Origin: an uncultured Clostridium sp.
Lineage (GTDB): Bacteria; Bacillota_I; Bacilli_A; RF39; UBA660
DNA: 47,092 bases
Direction of reading: 5' to 3'
NCBI GenBank assembly: GCA_945788325.1
Contig: CALZLL010000002.1
Location: 1 to 47,092 of the forward strand
Both the position numbers and the translations under genes were made by a program. Shown in pieces: positions 758 through 9,826 of the stretch (positions are counted from its first letter, which is position 1; every line of letters starts with the position of its first letter). Below the pieces are notes generated by a model. The model did no database searches, was not told where the DNA came from, and saw only the letters and a program-made list of their open reading frames with translations.

Positions 758-1774
758 ATGGATGAACTTTTTGATATCGTAGAAGATGAAACACTATCTT
801 TAGATGACGACAACAATAAAGATAGTGAAAATAATAATGAAGAAATAGTAGAAAAGAAAAAAGCTAGTGTATTAGAAAAATATGGAGAAAATCTAAGTAC
901 CAAAGTATATATTACCAATCCTGCTATAGCTAGAGATAATGAAATAGAAAAAACTATCTTAACTATACTTACTCCTGATAAATCTGCTATTTTAGTTGGT
1001 AAAGCTGGTATTGGTAAAACTGCTATAGTTGAAGGAATTGCTTACAAAATACAAAATAATGATATTCCTAACGCAATTAAAGGTTATGACATAATAAAAG
1101 TTAATACATCTCAGTTACTTGGTAAATATACTTCTGATGATGGAACAGAAGAACTTAGAATTAACGTTTTACTAAAAGAAGTTGAAAACGCTTCTAATAC
1201 AATTTTATTCATTGATGAAATTCATACTCTTGTAATCGAATCAAGAAATAGTGGAATAGATTTTGTTAATGCTTTAAAACCCGCCTTATCTCGTGGTGAT
1301 ATTAAAGTAATTGGCGCTACTACACTTGATGAATATAATCAATATTTAATAAGAGATAAAGCTTTTCTAAGACGTTTTGAAAAAATAGACGTTGAAGAAC
1401 CAAATGCTGAAACTACCGTTAAAATACTTATGGGATCTTATCCTAGGATTGAAAAGAAAACTGGTGTAAAGCTAGCATATTCATCATTTGTAATAGAAAA
1501 TATAATGAAGTTTATCGTAAATATGACAAGTGAATATAAAAGAGTATATGAACTTGGTTCAAGATATCCTGATAATGCTTTGGCGTTATTATCTAAAGCA
1601 TTTAGTTATGCTAAGTTCGATAATAGCGAATTCGTTACTTTTAAACATATATATAAAGCTATAATGAATTGTCAAAGTGTTTATTCGGATGTAGTAAAAA
1701 AAGAAGCTGAAGCTTTTAAAGTTGAATTTAAAGACTTTCTTGAAAAAGAAAACGTAGATTTAAATGATTATTAA
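758..1774 (+). CDS. Standalone AAA+ ATPase resembling the D1 module of ClpA/ClpB/ClpC (no Clp N-domain, M-domain or D2)
   Basis: Walker A GKAGIGKT and Walker B ILFIDEIHTL. The segment LKPALSRGDIKVIGATTLDEYNQYLIRDKAFLRRFEKIDVEEP is near-identical in pattern to Clp/Hsp100 D1. The N-terminal 35 aa are acidic. An extended -10 (TGATATAAT, about 708-716) lies upstream. Confidence 0.75.
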   Translation: MDELFDIVEDETLSLDDDNNKDSENNNEEIVEKKKASVLEKYGENLSTKVYITNPAIARDNEIEKTILTILTPDKSAILVGKAGIGKTAIVEGIAYKIQNNDIPNAIKGYDIIKVNTSQLLGKYTSDDGTEELRINVLLKEVENASNTILFIDEIHTLVIESRNSGIDFVNALKPALSRGDIKVIGATTLDEYNQYLIRDKAFLRRFEKIDVEEPNAETTVKILMGSYPRIEKKTGVKLAYSSFVIENIMKFIVNMTSEYKRVYELGSRYPDNALALLSKAFSYAKFDNSEFVTFKHIYKAIMNCQSVYSDVVKKEAEAFKVEFKDFLEKENVDLNDY

Positions 1775-3216: not shown

Positions 3217-4155
3217 TTATATTTTTTTTATTTGGTTTTTATATTTGATAAACTCCACATTATCTTTTTCTATTTGTAAAACAAAATTTATCTTTCCCTG
3301 TAATTCCCTTAAATATAATTCTTTATCTTTTGCTCTTATTCTTTTTAAATGACTATTTATACCATATTTTTTTATATAATACATTTCTTGTCTTATTTTT
3401 CTTTTATAACTTTTTCTTACGTTTGTTTTTCTATTAACCACAATACCAGTTACTTGTTGTCTAGTTGATTGTGTTACTACTTTTATTTTTTTCTTATTTA
3501 ATCTAAAACCATTTTTATACAATAATTTATTAACCAAACTAATAATTTCCTTTATATTGAAATCTCCAGAAAAAGTCATATCATCAGAATATCTAGTATA
3601 ACTAATATCCTTACTTTTACAAAAGGATCCCACAATTTCATCAAAATTTCTTAAACATAGGTTTGATATAAATCCACTAGTAGGTGCTCCTTGTGGCAAA
3701 TGATTATTATACACACATAAATTAGTAAGCAATATACCTAATTTCTTAGGATATAACGTTTCATTAAAACAAGTTTTATATACCATGTTGAAATTAACGT
3801 TATCAAAGAAGTTTTCTATATCAAGTTTTAAGATTATCTTTTTATTAATATGGGGCTTTGCATTATCTTTAATTGAACTATTTTTTAAATAGGCGCAAGC
3901 ATGATTAGAAATAATTTTTTCTTCTAAAACATTTTTAAGTATTTTTCTTTGTATGCTTTTTAAATTCTTACTAGGCGCATTTAAATATCTTAAACCACCA
4001 TTTTTTTTATGAATAATTATCTCTTCATAATTAGCATCTATGTCATTACTAATGCCATATAATATTTTATTTATCATTCTTATATTAGTAGTATTAACCA
4101 AATTAAAAGATGATAATAGTTCATTATATTTATCATCAGTTAAATATTTCCACAT
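3217..4155 (-). CDS. Retron-type reverse transcriptase (the ORF track extends to a TTG at 4170; ATG at 4155 preferred)
   Basis: Retron-diagnostic motifs line up with Ec86 RT: NAKPHINKKIILKLDIENFF (NAxxH...D..FF), LPQGAPTS, YTRYSDDMTFS (YxDD) and RQQVTGIVVN (the VTG motif). It is only about 312 aa, with no maturase, endonuclease or other fused domain. RBS GGGAG lies 8 nt before the ATG at 4155. Confidence 0.9.
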   Translation of the reverse strand: MWKYLTDDKYNELLSSFNLVNTTNIRMINKILYGISNDIDANYEEIIIHKKNGGLRYLNAPSKNLKSIQRKILKNVLEEKIISNHACAYLKNSSIKDNAKPHINKKIILKLDIENFFDNVNFNMVYKTCFNETLYPKKLGILLTNLCVYNNHLPQGAPTSGFISNLCLRNFDEIVGSFCKSKDISYTRYSDDMTFSGDFNIKEIISLVNKLLYKNGFRLNKKKIKVVTQSTRQQVTGIVVNRKTNVRKSYKRKIRQEMYYIKKYGINSHLKRIRAKDKELYLRELQGKINFVLQIEKDNVEFIKYKNQIKKI

Positions 4156-4171
4156 ATTATCATCTCCCAAT

Positions 4172-4367: not shown

Positions 4368-5543
4368 TTATTTTGATCTTACATTAATATCATCTATACA
4401 TTCATCGTACCTTAATACATGTTCTACATAATCAGGATCACCTGGGTAACTTGAATTTCTATAATCAAGCCATCCTAAATCATTAGATTTTAATACTTCA
4501 TCTTTAGTTTTACCAGTAGCATAACAATAAGAATTAATAATCTTATTAACACTACCAGGCCCCATATTATAGGTTTGGATAGCCGCTATTTTATTACCTT
4601 GCATTTGATTTAAATAATTTTGATAAATAGCACAACCCACTTTTATATTAAAATTAATATCTCTTAATTTATCTAAGGTTATATGAATAGTTTCATAACT
4701 TTCAGTTTCATAGTTATAAACTTTAATATCATTTCCATTCCATACGTCAACTTGCACTTGCATAAGTCCAATTGCACCACCAGAATCAACTTCATTTGAA
4801 TGTACTCCTCTTTCTTGGGTAGCTATTGCAAGCATAATAGATGGATCAAGGCCATACATATTAGCGTATTTTTCTATAATATCATAGTATAAATCTTTAG
4901 TTTTTTCAGCTTTAGTAGTATCCGTTTCATCCTTTATGCCAAGCATATTATACATGGTTGTCTGTTCTTTTTTAACGTCTAAGTTTTGGGTTTTGATATC
5001 AGTTTCTTCTTCATCTTTTTTTATTTCTTTTTTAATATATTCATTTTCTAATGTATCTACATAGTCTTTTTCTAAATCTTCTTTATTATCATCTACATAA
5101 ATAGCATTATCATAAGATGGTTTAACTGGTGTAATTATTGTTTTTACATCTTTATTATTAGCCTTAAATGCTGCAAAGCTAGCTACTGTAGAAATTGCTA
5201 TAACACCTGCTAAAACTTTAGCTCTCCATTTAGCTTCTTTATCTAATTTATATTTCTTTAATTTATCAAATATAAAATCAAATCTACTATCCCCTTGAAA
5301 ATAATAATAATCTTTTAAGGTGATTTTTAATTCTCCTACAAAGCACTCTAAATTATCACCATCAACCCATATATTATGAACTTTTGCCCTATTAAATTCA
5401 TTAAGTAATCTATTTAAATCCTTTTTTGAAACAATGCTATATTTTAAAAGGTTTTTATTATTTAAAACACTATCTAAACTAGCCTCTCCTTCTATAAAAG
5501 TAGCACTAGGTCCATCTATATTTCTTATTACAAGTTCACTCAT
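4368..5543 (-). CDS. Membrane-anchored lytic transglycosylase (SLT domain) with an unknown ~110-aa cytoplasmic N-domain
   Basis: One TM helix (VLAGVIAISTVASFAAFKA) is followed by an acidic, K/E-rich linker. The C-terminal SLT motifs are AIATQERG (catalytic Glu), GAIGLMQV and QTYNMGPG. RBS GGTGA. The gene ends 37 nt before the retron ncRNA, with no intervening hairpin. Confidence 0.75.
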   Translation of the reverse strand: MSELVIRNIDGPSATFIEGEASLDSVLNNKNLLKYSIVSKKDLNRLLNEFNRAKVHNIWVDGDNLECFVGELKITLKDYYYFQGDSRFDFIFDKLKKYKLDKEAKWRAKVLAGVIAISTVASFAAFKANNKDVKTIITPVKPSYDNAIYVDDNKEDLEKDYVDTLENEYIKKEIKKDEEETDIKTQNLDVKKEQTTMYNMLGIKDETDTTKAEKTKDLYYDIIEKYANMYGLDPSIMLAIATQERGVHSNEVDSGGAIGLMQVQVDVWNGNDIKVYNYETESYETIHITLDKLRDINFNIKVGCAIYQNYLNQMQGNKIAAIQTYNMGPGSVNKIINSYCYATGKTKDEVLKSNDLGWLDYRNSSYPGDPDYVEHVLRYDECIDDINVRSK

Positions 5544-5752
5544 ATTATCACCATATATAGTATAACAAATTATTTATTATCATAGTGTAAATATATATAA
5601 ACATTTACACTTTTTTATTATTATAAATGTAAACAAAAACTAGTTTATTCTGTTTTTATTATGAAAAGTACGCAAATCAATCTCATACTCAAACTCACTT
5701 GTTAAATAGATGTTAAAACTTTCTTATACTAGTGTCAACTCTTTATTATATT

Positions 5753-6238
5753 TCATGCATTTTTTTCTAATAATTTAAAGTTACAACATCTAGATTTTAT
5801 TTTTTTATTTAGTCTACCATTTATATAATCATTATATAATTTTTTTGATTTCCTATATAACTTTTCATCATTTCGTATAAGCCAATAAATTTGTTCCTTC
5901 AAAAGTTTATTATATTTATAACCAAAAACATCGTTAATTTTATTAAACTCAATCAATTTATAGTTTGGTTCTAAAACAGGTATCATATTATTAAAATTAA
6001 CCACACCTAATTCACCATCATCTAATTTTAAAAAATCAACCATGTTACGCATTATTTTATGTTTTTCTTTAGGGCTCGATAATGGTGCAAAATACTTGAT
6101 GGTATCTATTTCAAATAAAACACCAATAAAAGGCCTATTTTATTTCTTAGAAAAATTATAAGGAACCCTCTTATCAAATTCTCTTAAATAATCACAATAT
6201 TTACTATCAATAATAACTAATTTTAATTTTGTATTCAT
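5753..6238 (-). pseudogene. toxN: ToxN/AbiQ-family type III toxin (endoribonuclease) interrupted by an in-frame TAA at codon 33
   Basis: My translation from ATG 6238 (RBS AAAGAGGTG) reads MNTKLKLVIIDSKYCDYLREFDKRVPYNFSKK*NRPFIGVLFEIDTIKYFAPLSSPKEKHKIMRNMVDF... and continues in the same frame into the 99-aa track ORF. Three motifs match ToxN/AbiQ: FIGV..EI...Y.APLSSPK.KH, GVVNFNNMIPV and C-terminal CCNFKLLEK. The stop lies at 6140-6142. Confidence 0.8.
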
Positions 6239-6284
6239 TATAACACCTCTTTCTTTTTCAATACATTTGTTCGTTATATATAGT

Positions 6285-6321
6285 AAAATAAAAAGCTAGC
6301 ATAAATTTAATTACTGCTAGC
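6285..6321 (-). terminator. Intrinsic terminator between the antitoxin repeats and toxN
   Basis: The minus strand reads GCTAGCA-gtaattaaattta-TGCTAGC followed by TTTTTATTTT. This is the same position as the attenuating terminator in ToxIN loci. Confidence 0.65.
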
Positions 6322-6345
6322 AACTTTTTTAAGTCCCAATTTAAT

Positions 6346-6431
6346 GGCTGGGTTCACCGCTTTATTAAGTTCCTATTATGGCCGGAATCGCCGCTTTATT
6401 AAGTTCCTATTATGGCCGGAATCGCCGCTTT
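6346..6431 (-). ncRNA. toxI: ToxI/antiQ-like antitoxin RNA: about 2.5 tandem copies of a 34-nt repeat
   Basis: Copy 1 is 6346-6379 (ggctgggttcaccgctttattaagttcctattat). Copy 2 is 6380-6413 (ggccggaatcgccgctttattaagttcctattat). A partial copy spans 6414-6431. A degenerate partial copy (aagtcccaatttaat) lies just before copy 1. The repeats are directly adjacent with no spacers, upstream of and co-oriented with toxN. Confidence 0.75.
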
Positions 6432-6434
6432 TTC

Positions 6435-6458
6435 TAGTGTTAATTTAAATTAACACTA
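6435..6458. repeat. 24-nt perfect palindrome in the toxI leader
   Basis: TAGTGTTAATTT/AAATTAACACTA lies between the predicted promoter and the repeat array. No adjacent U-run on the minus strand, so it is not a terminator. Confidence 0.5.
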
Positions 6459-6504
6459 TATTATATGCAAATAAATTACATAACATAATTTCTTATGTAC
6501 CTAA

Positions 6505-6533
6505 ATATTACTATATCTATAAAACTCTGTCAA
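6505..6533 (-). promoter_or_regulatory. Near-consensus sigma-A promoter for the toxI-toxN transcript
   Basis: The minus strand reads TTGACA (6533-6528), 17 nt, then TAATAT (6510-6505). Confidence 0.55.
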
Positions 6534-6647: not shown

Positions 6648-8198
6648 CTATTCTCCTTCTATTTCTTTTAGCTTTTTTTCCTTATCAATTCTTGCAAATA
6701 ATACTTCAGGTTTCATATTACTATACGTATTATCATTTTTAAATATCAAAGAAGTATCACTAGTATTTAATTGTTTTAATATTTCTTCTGAAGTTTTAGT
6801 TAAGAAAGGATTAAGATGATTTGCACATACTCTAATAGATTCTAATAAATTGTATAAAACAGTTTGTAATCTATCTTGTTTTTCTTCTTCTTTAGCAAGA
6901 GCCCATGGCGTAGTTTCATCAATGTATTTATTACTACGTCTTAAACATTCAAATATTTCATCAAGAGCAAAACCAATTTCTAACTTATCCATTTTCTTTT
7001 CTAATCTACCATCTAACTCATTAACCATGTTAATTAACTCATTATCAACGTCTTCATTTACATTTTTATTAGTAACCACACCATCAAAATATTTATTAGC
7101 CATTGAAATCGTTCTGTTAACTAAGTTACCTAACGTATTAGCTAAATCAGTATTTGTTCTTTCTATTAATAATTCATAAGTTAAGTTTCCATCATTTGCA
7201 AATGGTATTTCATGAAGCACGTAATACCTTACGGCATCTACTCCAAATAAATCTACTAAATCATCAGCGTATATAGCATTACCTCTTGATTTACCAATTT
7301 TATCATTATTTGTTAAAAGCCATGGATGACCAAATACTTGTTTTGGTAGTTCTAGATCTAAACTCCATAAGAAACATGGCCAGTAAATGGTATGAAACCT
7401 AATTATATCCTTACCAATTAAATGAAGATCTGCTGGCCACCATTTATTAAATTCTTCTGATGAACCATCTGGGTCATAACCAATGTTAGTAATATAGTTA
7501 GTAAGTGCATCAAGCCATACGTAAACCACGTGTTTTGGATCAATATCAACTGGTATTCCCCAGTCAAATGAAGTTCTTGAAACACATAAATCTTGTAATC
7601 CTGGTTTGATAAAGTTATTTAACATTTCATTTTTCCTTGATTCAGGCTGTATAAATTCTGGATGAGATTCAATGTATTCAACTAGTTTATCTTGATATTT
7701 AGATAACTTAAAGAAGTATGCTTCTTCTTTTTTTTCTTCTACGTCTCTTCCACAGTCTGGACATTTACCATCAACTAACTGAGATTCCGTCCAAAAAGAT
7801 TCACAAGGAGTACAATAAAGTCCTTTATATTCCCCTTTGTAAATATCTCCTTTATCATACATCTTGTCAAATATTTTTTGAACTATTTTTTCATGATTAG
7901 GATCAGTTGTTCTAACGAATTTATCATAAGAAGTATTCATTACATCCCATATTCTTTTTATGTCAGATGCTACCTCGTCAACAAACTCTTTTGGGGATAT
8001 TCCTTTTTCCTTAGCTTTAAGTTCTATTTTTTCTCCATGTTCATCAGTACCAGTTTGAAAATATACATCATATCCTTTTTGCCTTTTATATCTTGCAATA
8101 GCATCTGCTAAAACTATTTCATAAGTATTACCAATATGAGGTTTACCAGAAGTATATGCTATTGCGGTTGTAATATAATACTTTTTATTATTTTCCAT
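6648..8198 (-). CDS. metG: Methionyl-tRNA synthetase (the track ORF starts at a GTG at 8225; ATG 8198 after AGGAGG preferred)
   Basis: Class I aaRS motifs: HIGN (HIGH), the zinc knuckle CTPCESF...CPDCG, and KIGKSRGN (KMSKS-like). RBS AAAGGAGGAAAAAAAC precedes the ATG. Confidence 0.92.
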   Translation of the reverse strand: MENNKKYYITTAIAYTSGKPHIGNTYEIVLADAIARYKRQKGYDVYFQTGTDEHGEKIELKAKEKGISPKEFVDEVASDIKRIWDVMNTSYDKFVRTTDPNHEKIVQKIFDKMYDKGDIYKGEYKGLYCTPCESFWTESQLVDGKCPDCGRDVEEKKEEAYFFKLSKYQDKLVEYIESHPEFIQPESRKNEMLNNFIKPGLQDLCVSRTSFDWGIPVDIDPKHVVYVWLDALTNYITNIGYDPDGSSEEFNKWWPADLHLIGKDIIRFHTIYWPCFLWSLDLELPKQVFGHPWLLTNNDKIGKSRGNAIYADDLVDLFGVDAVRYYVLHEIPFANDGNLTYELLIERTNTDLANTLGNLVNRTISMANKYFDGVVTNKNVNEDVDNELINMVNELDGRLEKKMDKLEIGFALDEIFECLRRSNKYIDETTPWALAKEEEKQDRLQTVLYNLLESIRVCANHLNPFLTKTSEEILKQLNTSDTSLIFKNDNTYSNMKPEVLFARIDKEKKLKEIEGE

Positions 8199-8367
8199 GT
8201 TTTTTTCCTCCTTTATTTGGCTCACTATCTTTAAAAACTATTTTATAATTAGATGATTCATAACCATCATCATTTATTTGCTTATTATGAATTTTATCTA
8301 TGTCTTTCATTCTTTCTTTATTTTCTTTATTTTTTTTATCTATTAATAAATCGTAAATAAAACCCAT
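8188..8367 (-). CDS. Possible 59-aa small ORF between the T-box terminator and metG, overlapping the metG start by 11 nt
   Basis: One residue below the shortest ORF listed in the track (60 aa). My translation: MGFIYDLLIDKKNKENKERMKDIDKIHNKQINDDGYESSNYKIVFKDSEPNKGGKKHGK*. GGAG lies 7 nt upstream. No recognisable family. Confidence 0.25.
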   Translation of the reverse strand: MGFIYDLLIDKKNKENKERMKDIDKIHNKQINDDGYESSNYKIVFKDSEPNKGGKKHGK

Positions 8368-8384: not shown

Positions 8385-8615
8385 AATAAAAAGCCCATCC
8401 TAATTAAAGGATGAACTAACTTGTCCACGGTACCACCTTTGTTCTAGATATATAATCTGGCTCTCATACTTTTAACGCAAGTTAACGTTTTAACCTATTA
8501 GATTAAAAAGCTCTACTGACCATTTATATAAATACTTTTCTATGTATGCTTTCACCTTACCATACTCTCTTTTAATAGTTTTTCTTTATACTCTTCAGCA
8601 TCAAAGCCTTTAAAA
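8385..8615 (-). promoter_or_regulatory. T-box riboswitch leader of metG (Met specifier)
   Basis: The minus strand carries AGAGAGTATGG and the distal-loop GGTGAAAGC. The candidate specifier is AAATGG (ATG at 8523-8521). The T-box sequence is CAAAGGTGGTACCGTGG (8428-8446). The terminator is AGTTCATCC-tttaatta-GGATGGGCT followed by TTTTTATTTT. Confidence 0.7.
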
Positions 8616-8668: not shown

Positions 8669-9826
8669 TTATCTTAACTTTATTTTTGATAAAAACGATT
8701 CTTCTGTTGCTTTTACTATTTCTTTATCATCAGTATAAATAAAAGCACCACTATTTAATAATTTATTAACGTTTTTCTCATCTAACAATCCATAAGAATA
8801 ATACATATATTCTTCTTCTATATAACTTTTTAAATTATTAATATCAACATTTCTCCAATTAGAATCTACGTAATTTAAAAGACCTATTTTTATTTTATTA
8901 ATTTCAGTATTTTTACTCAATGCATTTTTTTGACCATCTAACCAATTATATAAATTATTATCTTTATCTTTATAAACAAAACTTTCTAAAACAAATAAAT
9001 CTCCATAGGTATCTTTATATTCTTTTAACATTAAGTAATATTTCTTCCAATTATTATTTTTAATCATATCTAAATTATATACTTTATCTTTTCTTATTAC
9101 TACTTCCCATACCATTTCTATTTCGTTTAATAATTCTATTTGTTTTTGGTTTAGCTTACTATTATTCTTTCCTTTATAGGCTAGTCTTTGTTTACTAATC
9201 CAACTTCCTAACTTTACTTTGTTTCCATCTTTACCCTTACAAACATAATTAGCAGGTATAAGTAGATTACCATGTTCTTCATAGTACTTTTTGGCTAATT
9301 CGTAATTTTTTAACCAATTATTTGGTATTATTTCTTTGTTATTTTTAACTTTCCATACCATTTCTATTTCGTTTAATAAATCCATTTGTTTTTGATTTAA
9401 CTTATTATTATTCTTTCCTTTATAGGCTTGCCTTTGGGTATTAATCCAATTACCTAATTTTACTTCGTTTCCTTCTTCATCTTTCCAAACATAAGTAGTA
9501 GGTATAAGTAAATTGCCATGTTCTTCATAATACTTTTTCGCTAATTCATAATTTTTAAGCCAGTTATTTGGTATTAATTCTTCATTATTTTTAACTTCCC
9601 ATACCATTTCTATTTCGTTTAATAATTCTATTTGTTTTTGACTTAATTTACTACTTCCATATCCTTTATAGGCTTGCCTTTGTCCACTTATCCAAATTCC
9701 TAATTTTACTTTGTTTCCATCTTCGTCCTTACAAACATAGTTTTGGGGTATAAGTAAATTGCCATATTCTTCATAGTACTTTTTGGCTAATTCATAATTT
9801 TTTAACCATCTTTCTTCGTTAGTCAT
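8669..9826 (-). CDS. Protein built from helicase-associated (HA) domain repeats
   Basis: Three near-identical 82-aa units (WLKNYELAKKYYEEHGNLLIP..YV.KD..GN.VKLG.WI..QRQAYKG....KL.QKQ..LLNEIEMVWE) plus one degenerate fourth unit. This pattern matches the HA domain. No helicase core is present. Confidence 0.65.
   Translation of the reverse strand: MTNEERWLKNYELAKKYYEEYGNLLIPQNYVCKDEDGNKVKLGIWISGQRQAYKGYGSSKLSQKQIELLNEIEMVWEVKNNEELIPNNWLKNYELAKKYYEEHGNLLIPTTYVWKDEEGNEVKLGNWINTQRQAYKGKNNNKLNQKQMDLLNEIEMVWKVKNNKEIIPNNWLKNYELAKKYYEEHGNLLIPANYVCKGKDGNKVKLGSWISKQRLAYKGKNNSKLNQKQIELLNEIEMVWEVVIRKDKVYNLDMIKNNNWKKYYLMLKEYKDTYGDLFVLESFVYKDKDNNLYNWLDGQKNALSKNTEINKIKIGLLNYVDSNWRNVDINNLKSYIEEEYMYYSYGLLDEKNVNKLLNSGAFIYTDDKEIVKATEESFLSKIKLR
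9086..9826 (-). repeat. Intragenic tandem DNA repeat, 3 x 246 nt at roughly 90 percent identity by eye
   Basis: For example, ccataccatttctatttcgtttaataa recurs near 9108, 9354 and 9600. The period equals the 82-aa protein repeat. Confidence 0.7.

Follow-up and report, generated by a model that had tools for sequence, protein, structure and literature searches.

A chromosomal ToxIN-family type III toxin-antitoxin locus with a probable toxin pseudogene in an uncultured Clostridium sp.

The 47,092-nt stretch of DNA analysed here (contig CALZLL010000002.1 of an uncultured Clostridium sp. of the pig gut; hereafter the window) contains a locus that is very probably a chromosomal ToxIN-family type III toxin-antitoxin and abortive-infection module whose toxin gene, toxN, has turned into a pseudogene. 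All features of the locus are read on the minus strand, within AT-rich DNA of 22-31% GC, in the order promoter, leader, tandem array, hairpin with a T-run, ribosome-binding site (RBS) and ToxN-family open reading frame (ORF) (Table 1). The published criteria for a ToxIN locus are a tandem array, a palindromic terminator and a toxin, preferably with an upstream promoter, and repeat units of 31-46 nt that form pseudoknots (Blower 2012; PMC3401426). The window has the toxin-family gene, the array, the terminator and a unit capable of forming a pseudoknot; what it lacks is an intact toxin ORF. A sequence-only reading of the same DNA had classed the locus as ToxIN/AbiQ-like type III, and this classification is borne out by the locus organisation and by the profile and structure matches described below.

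Protein searches were done with the internal stop codon of toxN masked. The comparison of the repaired protein with the ToxN_toxin family, which the sequence-only reading had named as a check, gave a significant match to PF13958 (156.7 bits against a cut-off of 25, E = 7.4e-46), with residues 5-160 aligned to positions 1-155 of the 159-position profile; this is the sole significant Pfam match. The PADLOC AbiQ profile (PDLC02352) is matched at E = 4.1e-36 (residues 6-160 on profile positions 2-153 of 160). The best match among solved structures in the PDB is ToxN from Bacillus thuringiensis (4ATO, 7e-21), followed by ToxN from Escherichia coli (7D8O, 5e-20) and Pectobacterium (2XD0, 1e-19). AbiQ (4GLK) is matched more weakly (8e-7), and no CptN or TenpN chain is among the PDB matches at E <= 1. 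NCBIfam gave no match for the repaired protein. A large protein collection holds 1886 homologues of the toxN product, the near ones being 171 aa long. The ToxN/AbiQ motifs picked out earlier are present in the ORF, among them APLSSPK (residues 51-57), whose Ser/Thr is the proven catalytic residue of AbiQ/ToxN (PMC5086642).

Two lesions, called by comparison with three related loci (L001-L003) and with twelve sister alleles from Candidatus Aphodocola-like gut metagenome-assembled genomes (MAGs), interrupt the gene. The first is an in-frame stop at codon 33, which is the only interruption of a single frame running from 6238 to 5753. The second is the deletion of one G, and the resulting frameshift swaps the last 13 residues (EKCMKYNKELTLV) for KNA and a stop, so that the protein ends in ...LLEKNA where its closest homologues end in ...LLEEKCMKYNKELTLV. 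With both lesions repaired, the C-terminus is identical to that of the homologue P0001. The earlier proposal of a 161-aa repaired toxin took in only one of the two lesions and fell short in length, the ancestral product having been of 171 aa. Stop-codon reassignment or read-through was considered and rejected, because TAA ends the intact homologues and because the gene has an independent frameshift as well. The nonsense codon precedes the APLSSPK motif. No active toxin would be expected from the gene as it stands and, because toxN carries two inactivating lesions, the locus should be unable to act as an abortive-infection system in its present form.

It is highly improbable that a truncated product, either the 99-aa C-terminal ORF or the 32-aa N-terminal peptide, is active. 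The 99-aa ORF does begin with ATG and is reported by gene callers, and type III loci with truncated toxins beside full arrays have already been recorded, the activity of such short toxins being left open (PMC3401426). This ORF starts only at Met63, however, and so lacks the N-terminal beta-strands and APLSSPK as well as the conserved C-terminus, and no RBS precedes it.

The twelve sister alleles occupy one chromosomal site (T-box, methionyl-tRNA synthetase (MetRS) gene, toxIN and SLT-domain gene), and toxN is intact in all twelve. The 90%-identity protein cluster likewise has five intact 171-aa members, one of which is annotated by NCBI as ToxN/AbiQ toxin from a MAG of Candidatus Aphodocola sp. 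Six changes set the window apart from all twelve sisters, four of them disruptive; every one falls in toxN and none in the 307 nt upstream (Table 1). The same broken allele is carried by a 59-kb pig-gut metagenome contig to which the window is 100% identical over 6.3 kb. That the locus is instead a fully functional ToxIN system, whose stop and frameshift are artefacts of sequencing or assembly or else minority variants that became fixed in the consensus, is very unlikely. Such a view can point to the twelve intact sisters, to the untouched regulatory region and array, and to the chance that the contigs with the broken allele share a single read set. It has to contend with two independent lesions of different kinds that are accompanied by two K-to-E and two silent unique changes in one 515-nt gene, and with flanks that are identical over the 6.3 kb between two assemblies. 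Further, the nonsense change belongs to a GG>AT tandem substitution rather than being a homopolymer-length error, and the deleted base is a G between A-runs.

The twelve sister copies are of two types. In allele A (L003 and L088-L091), the 34-nt type of units 1 and 2 is found together with one form of ToxN residues 77-150. Allele B (L092-L098) has 36-nt units only, three of them or, in L094 and L095, two, together with strongly diverged ToxN residues 77-150. Promoter, leader, unit 3, terminator, RBS and the ToxN C-terminus are common to both. The window has the array and central region of allele A and the N-terminus (codons 1-76) of allele B, and is both the only chimera and the only dead copy among the thirteen. 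The many differences from P0001 in codons 1-76 could have been taken for pseudogene drift; this was rejected and they are ascribed to recombination, because they match allele B and just six changes are unique to the window. Residues 77-150 plausibly include the long antitoxin-binding helix H3. ToxI-ToxN pairs are selective, and the joint switching of unit type and toxin region fits this selectivity. That chimerism caused the decay of toxN is speculation.

Relatives of the locus were found by an alignment-seeded scan of species-representative genomes, a single-protein scan (P0001) having given no confirmed relative. The scan yielded 80 loci in uncultured gut Bacilli, 'Tenericutes', Erysipelotrichaceae and Clostridia MAGs, with ToxN 55-66% identical to that of the window and none closer than 66%; with metagenome loci added, the set comprises 84 related loci. 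No close relative was found in phages, where the best identity is 45%. According to the sequence-only reading, the absence of repeats from homologous loci would have spoken against it. Tandem Repeats Finder (TRF) detects a 34-40-nt tandem repeat upstream of toxN in 80 of the 84 loci, and a profile search finds at least two units in 81 and exactly three, of 34-36 nt, in 75. Of the 84, 82 have a hairpin and T-run downstream of the array and ahead of the start codon. Mixed arrays are the rule: of 73 three-unit arrays, all units are identical in only two, and 41 combine units of different length. In two more distant relatives (L001, 923-1255; L002, 653-980), toxN is separated from the SLT gene by an inserted HMGL-like gene of the homocitrate/isopropylmalate synthase type, with a long and structured-looking upstream region; the window does not have this gene.

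In the window itself, TRF reports a repeat at 6357-6431 with a period of 34, 2.2 copies, 100% match and a score of 150, and a search with a profile of related units resolves three full-length units without spacers across 6431-6328. The earlier description of spacer-less 34-nt repeats thus stands, while its '2.5 copies plus a degenerate partial copy' gives way to three complete units of 34, 34 and 36 nt. Unit 3 is 76% identical to units 1 and 2 and covers the whole model. Its stem 2 is CCCA/TGGG in place of TTCC/GGAA, both arms having changed together, and units of its type fill whole arrays beside intact toxins (L080 and the allele B strains L092 and L093). For these reasons, namely the full-model match, the compensatory stem changes and the occurrence elsewhere beside intact toxins, we regard unit 3 as complete rather than degenerate. 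The three units are flanked by the A-rich junctions GAAAAAG, AAUAAAG (twice) and AAAAAAG. The known cleavage motifs of the family are AA/AU, A/AAAA and A/AAA (PMC5086642), and by analogy the junctions are putative sites of ToxN self-processing.

The units of the window's family fit the pattern of the ToxI Group I pseudoknot, in which stems 1a and 2a are separated by a 2-3-nt loop, 2a and 1b by one of 0-1 nt and 1b and 2b by one of 6-8 nt, and a single-stranded A-rich tail follows (PMC3401426). Across 54 consensus units, 85.4% of the positions proposed for this two-stem pseudoknot are paired, against 80.8% in shuffles (0/500 as high), and the covariation score is 0.221 against 0.145; partners slid by -1 as a control give a similar covariation score, so that the 54-unit covariation test is by itself modest. 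Across 133 distinct units, both stems are 92-98% paired. Pairing is at 97-98% in stem 1 (unit positions 6-8 with 16-18), where GC and AU exchange at 6:18 and UA, UG and CG at 8:16. Stem 2 (positions 11-15 with 24-29) shows a UA-CG exchange at 12:28. Within the unit, mutual information peaks at 1.13 bits between position 15 and the base two before the GG of stem 2b (15:24), in a three-way covariation of C with G, G with C and A with U. It is scarcely conceivable that the repeats are unrelated to the toxin, for instance as a mini-CRISPR (clustered regularly interspaced short palindromic repeats), a REP-like (repetitive extragenic palindromic) element or a protein-binding array. Nothing beyond the presence of direct repeats speaks for this, and against it stand the lack of spacers, the fixed place of the array between promoter and terminator upstream of toxN in at least 80 loci, the co-variation of unit type with the central region of the toxin between alleles, and the RNA-like covariation just described.

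The near-consensus promoter motif, TTGACA-17-TAATAT, is present as had been read, and matches 10 of 12 consensus positions (candidate promoter P1). Promoter-like matches in the region number 11, against 14.1 expected in shuffles, and are thus not enriched. The support for P1 therefore comes from its conserved position in relatives rather than from the motif match: the -35 and the (often extended) -10 are kept at equal distance from the array, the -10 lying exactly 74 nt before unit 1 in many loci. P1 is also 100% identical in the sister strains L088 and L092. Between P1 and the array lies a structured leader (folding energy -16.9 kcal/mol, z = -3.7). All three of its hairpins are recovered by RNAalifold from 20 diverged loci, with compensatory changes in 8 of 16 pairs. 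The leader holds an invariant GCATATAAT (6467-6460), which includes a TATAAT (6465-6460) and also stands just upstream of the B. thuringiensis ToxI array (L085, about 303-311). The TATAAT may be a second, or the true, proximal -10, or may be an RNA element. We know of no description of a leader element with GCATATAAT for type III systems. Downstream of the array, the intrinsic terminator GCTAGCA/TGCTAGC with its T-run and the RBS were both confirmed. The terminator hairpin has a 7-bp GC-rich stem (-11 kcal/mol, z = -2.2) and was not picked up by a standard terminator scan, which allows loops of up to 8 nt; a custom scan with loops of up to 15 nt was used instead.

Table 1. Features of the toxIN locus in the window, with the changes unique to its toxN (strand as read; coordinates of the 47,092-nt window)
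Feature	Position	Strand	Sequence or change	Basis or remark
Candidate promoter P1	6505-6533	-	TTGACA 6533-6528, 17 nt, TAATAT 6510-6505	sigma-70-like
Structured leader, ~70 nt	6434-6500	-	hairpins 6498-6483, 6482-6464, 6458-6435	
Antitoxin unit 1, ToxI-type, 34 nt	6398-6431	-	AAAGCGGCGATTCCGGCCATAATAGGAACTTAAT	TRF and profile search
Antitoxin unit 2, 34 nt	6364-6397	-	same sequence as unit 1	TRF and profile search
Antitoxin unit 3, 36-nt variant	6328-6363	-	AAAGCGGTGAACCCAGCCATTAAATTGGGACTTAAA	30.9 bits over full profile model; A-rich junction follows
Intrinsic terminator/attenuator	6290-6321	-	GCTAGCA 6321-6315, 13-nt loop, TGCTAGC 6301-6295, T5 6294-6290	
RBS	6244-6252	-	AAAGAGGTG, 5 nt before ATG (6238)	read from sequence; conserved in L001-L003
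toxN pseudogene, ancestrally 171 codons and stop	5724-6238	-		profile matches, alignment with homologues
Present-day toxN fragments	6238-6140; 6052-5753	-	32 aa and TAA; 99-aa ORF	
In-frame TAA, codon 33	6140-6142	-	TAA	GAA (Glu) in all 12 sister alleles
Site of 1-nt (G) deletion	5760-5767	-	GAAGAAAAAT -> GAAAAAAAT	-1 frameshift at codon 159
Unique change	6181		A>G	K20E
Unique change	6143		G>A	silent (K32)
Unique change	6142		G>T	E33stop
Unique change	6074		T>C	silent (S55)
Unique change	6013		A>G	K76E
Unique change	5764, within A-run 5766-5760		G deleted	frameshift

Several points weigh against the interpretation of the locus as a ToxIN module with a decayed toxin gene. The assemblies with the lesions may all come from one read set, so that an assembly error, though very unlikely, is conceivable. 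Unique changes are more frequent in the coding sequence than upstream of it (6/515 against 0/307), but not significantly so (p about 0.06), and recent loss of the toxin may by itself account for the conservation of the array in the window strain. Thermodynamic folds of single units are no better than those of shuffled sequence (z about 0); poor folding of a single unit is to be expected, because the pseudoknot would be stabilised by protein. The Rfam ToxI family RF02519 (gathering score 50 bits) has no match at E <= 10 in the window, nor at E <= 1 in L088. Finally, the locus has two candidate promoters, P1 and the proximal TATAAT of the leader. The 34-nt RF02519 model does detect the B. thuringiensis units, at 59, 47 and 37 bits; the gut clade of three-unit arrays, with more than 80 loci here (compare L085, 320-421, for the B. 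thuringiensis array), is invisible to it.

By homology with ToxIN of Pectobacterium atrosepticum (ToxIN_Pa), ToxIN of B. thuringiensis (ToxIN_Bt) and AbiQ (PMC3401426; PMC5086642), we infer transcription, processing, complex formation and abortive-infection activity for the ancestral locus, and loss of function for the present one. A constitutive promoter would drive transcription of the structured leader and then of the three 34-36-nt ToxI-type units. The hairpin terminator would stop most transcripts, leaving antitoxin RNA in excess of toxin mRNA, and the transcripts that read through would give ToxN, a sequence-specific endoribonuclease. ToxN would cut the precursor at the A-rich unit junctions (AAUAAAG/AAAAAAG), and each freed unit would fold as a small pseudoknot that bridges two ToxN monomers into a closed, inactive complex. 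Solved ToxIN complexes are 3:3 assemblies (PMC3401426; PMC5086642), and three units per array are the norm in the window's clade. When a phage shuts off host transcription, the labile RNA would be lost, and free ToxN would degrade RNA and so abort the infection. In the window, without ToxN, the array RNA would remain unprocessed.

The state of the locus fits a recent toxin-null remnant, because strains with an intact toxin have exactly the same promoter, leader, array and terminator. Loss of the toxin first is, to our knowledge, the only order of decay that a cell can tolerate. An alternative is that the toxin-less array and leader are actively kept, either as an orphan antitoxin (an anti-addiction or immunity RNA against ToxN from phages, plasmids or recombination between alleles A and B) or for some other regulatory role of the leader or array RNA. 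We consider this unlikely. In its favour, promoter, leader and array show no difference over 213 nt from L088, despite 3.5% divergence between the same strains over 7.8 kb, the leader is identical even in L092, a strain 7.3% diverged from the window, and the array has units of both allelic types. However, selection would produce the same conservation wherever the toxin is intact, and a very recent loss of the toxin would leave it in place. Moreover, processing of the precursor without ToxN is not known, nothing shows ToxN genes arriving from outside, and the coding excess of unique changes falls short of significance. A broader scenario that joins these elements is similarly doubtful as a whole. 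In it, two co-adapted ToxI/ToxN specificity alleles would segregate at one site, the stem-2 and loop type of the unit switching with ToxN 77-150; the chimeric toxin of the window would have escaped full neutralisation and then been killed by the four disruptive mutations; and the mixed array and its unusually conserved leader would be kept by selection, either with the array as a stand-alone immunity (anti-addiction) RNA or with the leader as a previously undescribed type III regulatory element.

Among characterised systems, the closest layout is that of ToxIN from B. thuringiensis (34 nt × 2.9); antiQ of Lactococcus lactis (35 nt × 2.8) is nearly as close and ToxI of P. atrosepticum (36 nt × 5.5) further away (PMC5086642). 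The sequence-only reading, which placed the layout near antiQ rather than near the 36 nt × 5.5 of ToxI, was thus correct as to the contrast, with B. thuringiensis ToxIN being slightly the closer of the two. The B. thuringiensis system (pAW63-type plasmids; 4ATO; RF02519), besides providing the best structural match, has 34-nt units (AAAATTGGTGTAACCTTACCGTAGTAGGTGCCAA) in about three copies (TRF 3.1 on L085). Its units share with those of the window the plan of an A-run, GGYG, stem 2a, stem 1b (RCC), a 5-7-nt loop and stem 2b, and it likewise has a hairpin terminator before the toxin gene and GCATATAAT just upstream of the array. It differs in that its protein is only about 35% identical to the window toxin and in that the RNA of the window is too diverged for RF02519. 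The window locus is also chromosomal rather than on a conjugative plasmid, and has an extra ~70-nt three-hairpin leader and a toxin pseudogene.

The paradigm of the family, ToxIN of P. atrosepticum (pECA1039; 2XD0/2XDD), has a toxin of the same family (E = 1e-19) and the same order of promoter, repeats, terminator and toxN. Its GGUGAUU core and two nested 3-4-bp stems are common to the consensus unit of the window's family, AAAGCGGUGAUUCC..., the window's own units having GGCGAUU and GGUGAAC. Both have an A-rich cleavage junction, the AA/AU motif being experimental in P. atrosepticum and predicted in the window. Unlike the window locus, with three units of 34-36 nt, it has 5.5 units of 36 nt, and it is Gram-negative and plasmid-borne. 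AbiQ/antiQ of L. lactis (pSRQ900; 4GLK) resembles the window in its profile match (E = 4e-36), its 35 nt × 2.8 units and its low-GC Firmicute host, and AbiQ cleaves in A-runs (A/AAA) (PMC5086642). In contrast to the window locus, it is plasmid-borne and a proven abortive-infection system, and its structure is a much weaker match (8e-7) than the ToxN structures. The nearest annotated relatives, at 42-45% identity, are loci from the catalogue of Blower 2012 on plasmids of Clostridium botulinum (p1BKT015925), Fusobacterium and Lactococcus CV56. These have 37-39-nt units in about 3.2-3.4 copies with the same A-run/GG.G../..CC plan, but belong to another clade, and the gut clade of the window is not in that catalogue. 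CptIN and TenpIN are laid out like type III systems in general, with an RNA antitoxin made of repeats ahead of an endoribonuclease toxin. As a rule they have longer repeats (PMC3401426), and the window protein has no detectable similarity to CptN or TenpN structures (E <= 1).

The sequence-only reading had also placed the locus 0.2 kb from a retron module, which did not hold. The gene 0.2 kb downstream of toxN is the SLT-domain gene (4368-5543), and the retron reverse transcriptase (RT) gene (3217-4170, minus strand; PADLOC RT_Ec107-like, 1e-120) lies beyond it, 1.6 kb from toxN. The SLT gene was rejected as part of the retron module, being present in strains without the RT. The segment 3206-4367, made up of the RT gene and 198 nt upstream, occurs in the window, L088 and L091 but not in L089, L090 and L092-L094; in strains without it, a Mur-ligase gene directly follows the SLT gene. 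The retron is therefore a separate variable cassette beside a core gene, and its link to toxIN is incidental. The 198-nt gap upstream of the RT could hold the msr-msd RNA, and the cassette is without an effector ORF. More distant relatives have an extra 131-aa ORF of unknown family after the RT (L001, 4950-5345; L002, 4863-5258).

Further features of the region were noted in passing. A T-box leader (8404-8613, minus strand), which at 99.3 bits exceeds the gathering score, precedes a 59-aa ORF and the MetRS gene (6648-8225), and is ordinary amino-acid-responsive regulation. The HA-repeat (helicase-associated, PF03457) protein encoded at 8669-9826 (minus strand) varies among sister strains, with lengths of 385, 467 and 706 aa; its gene has internal DNA repeats about 246 nt apart, judged from BLAST offsets, and looks like a hotspot of repeat expansion. 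An AAA+ ATPase gene (758-1774, plus strand) has weak TniB/IetA-like matches (PADLOC IetA 3.6e-05). It is probably a core rather than a defence gene, because it is conserved beside the Mur-ligase gene in all sister strains.

The ToxIN family is well known and already known to be common in Firmicutes, and as a single locus this dead copy carries little weight. Its interest lies in leading to a clade of three-unit ToxIN loci from uncultured gut Bacilli and Clostridia that is large and uncatalogued, and in capturing toxin-antitoxin decay midway along the expected path, where the toxin has gone and the antitoxin is still there. The conserved structured leader may bear on how the ratio of antitoxin to toxin is set. 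Lastly, since unit type and the presumed RNA-binding region switch together, the natural allele pairs at one chromosomal site would offer a clean system in which to map the determinants of RNA-protein specificity.

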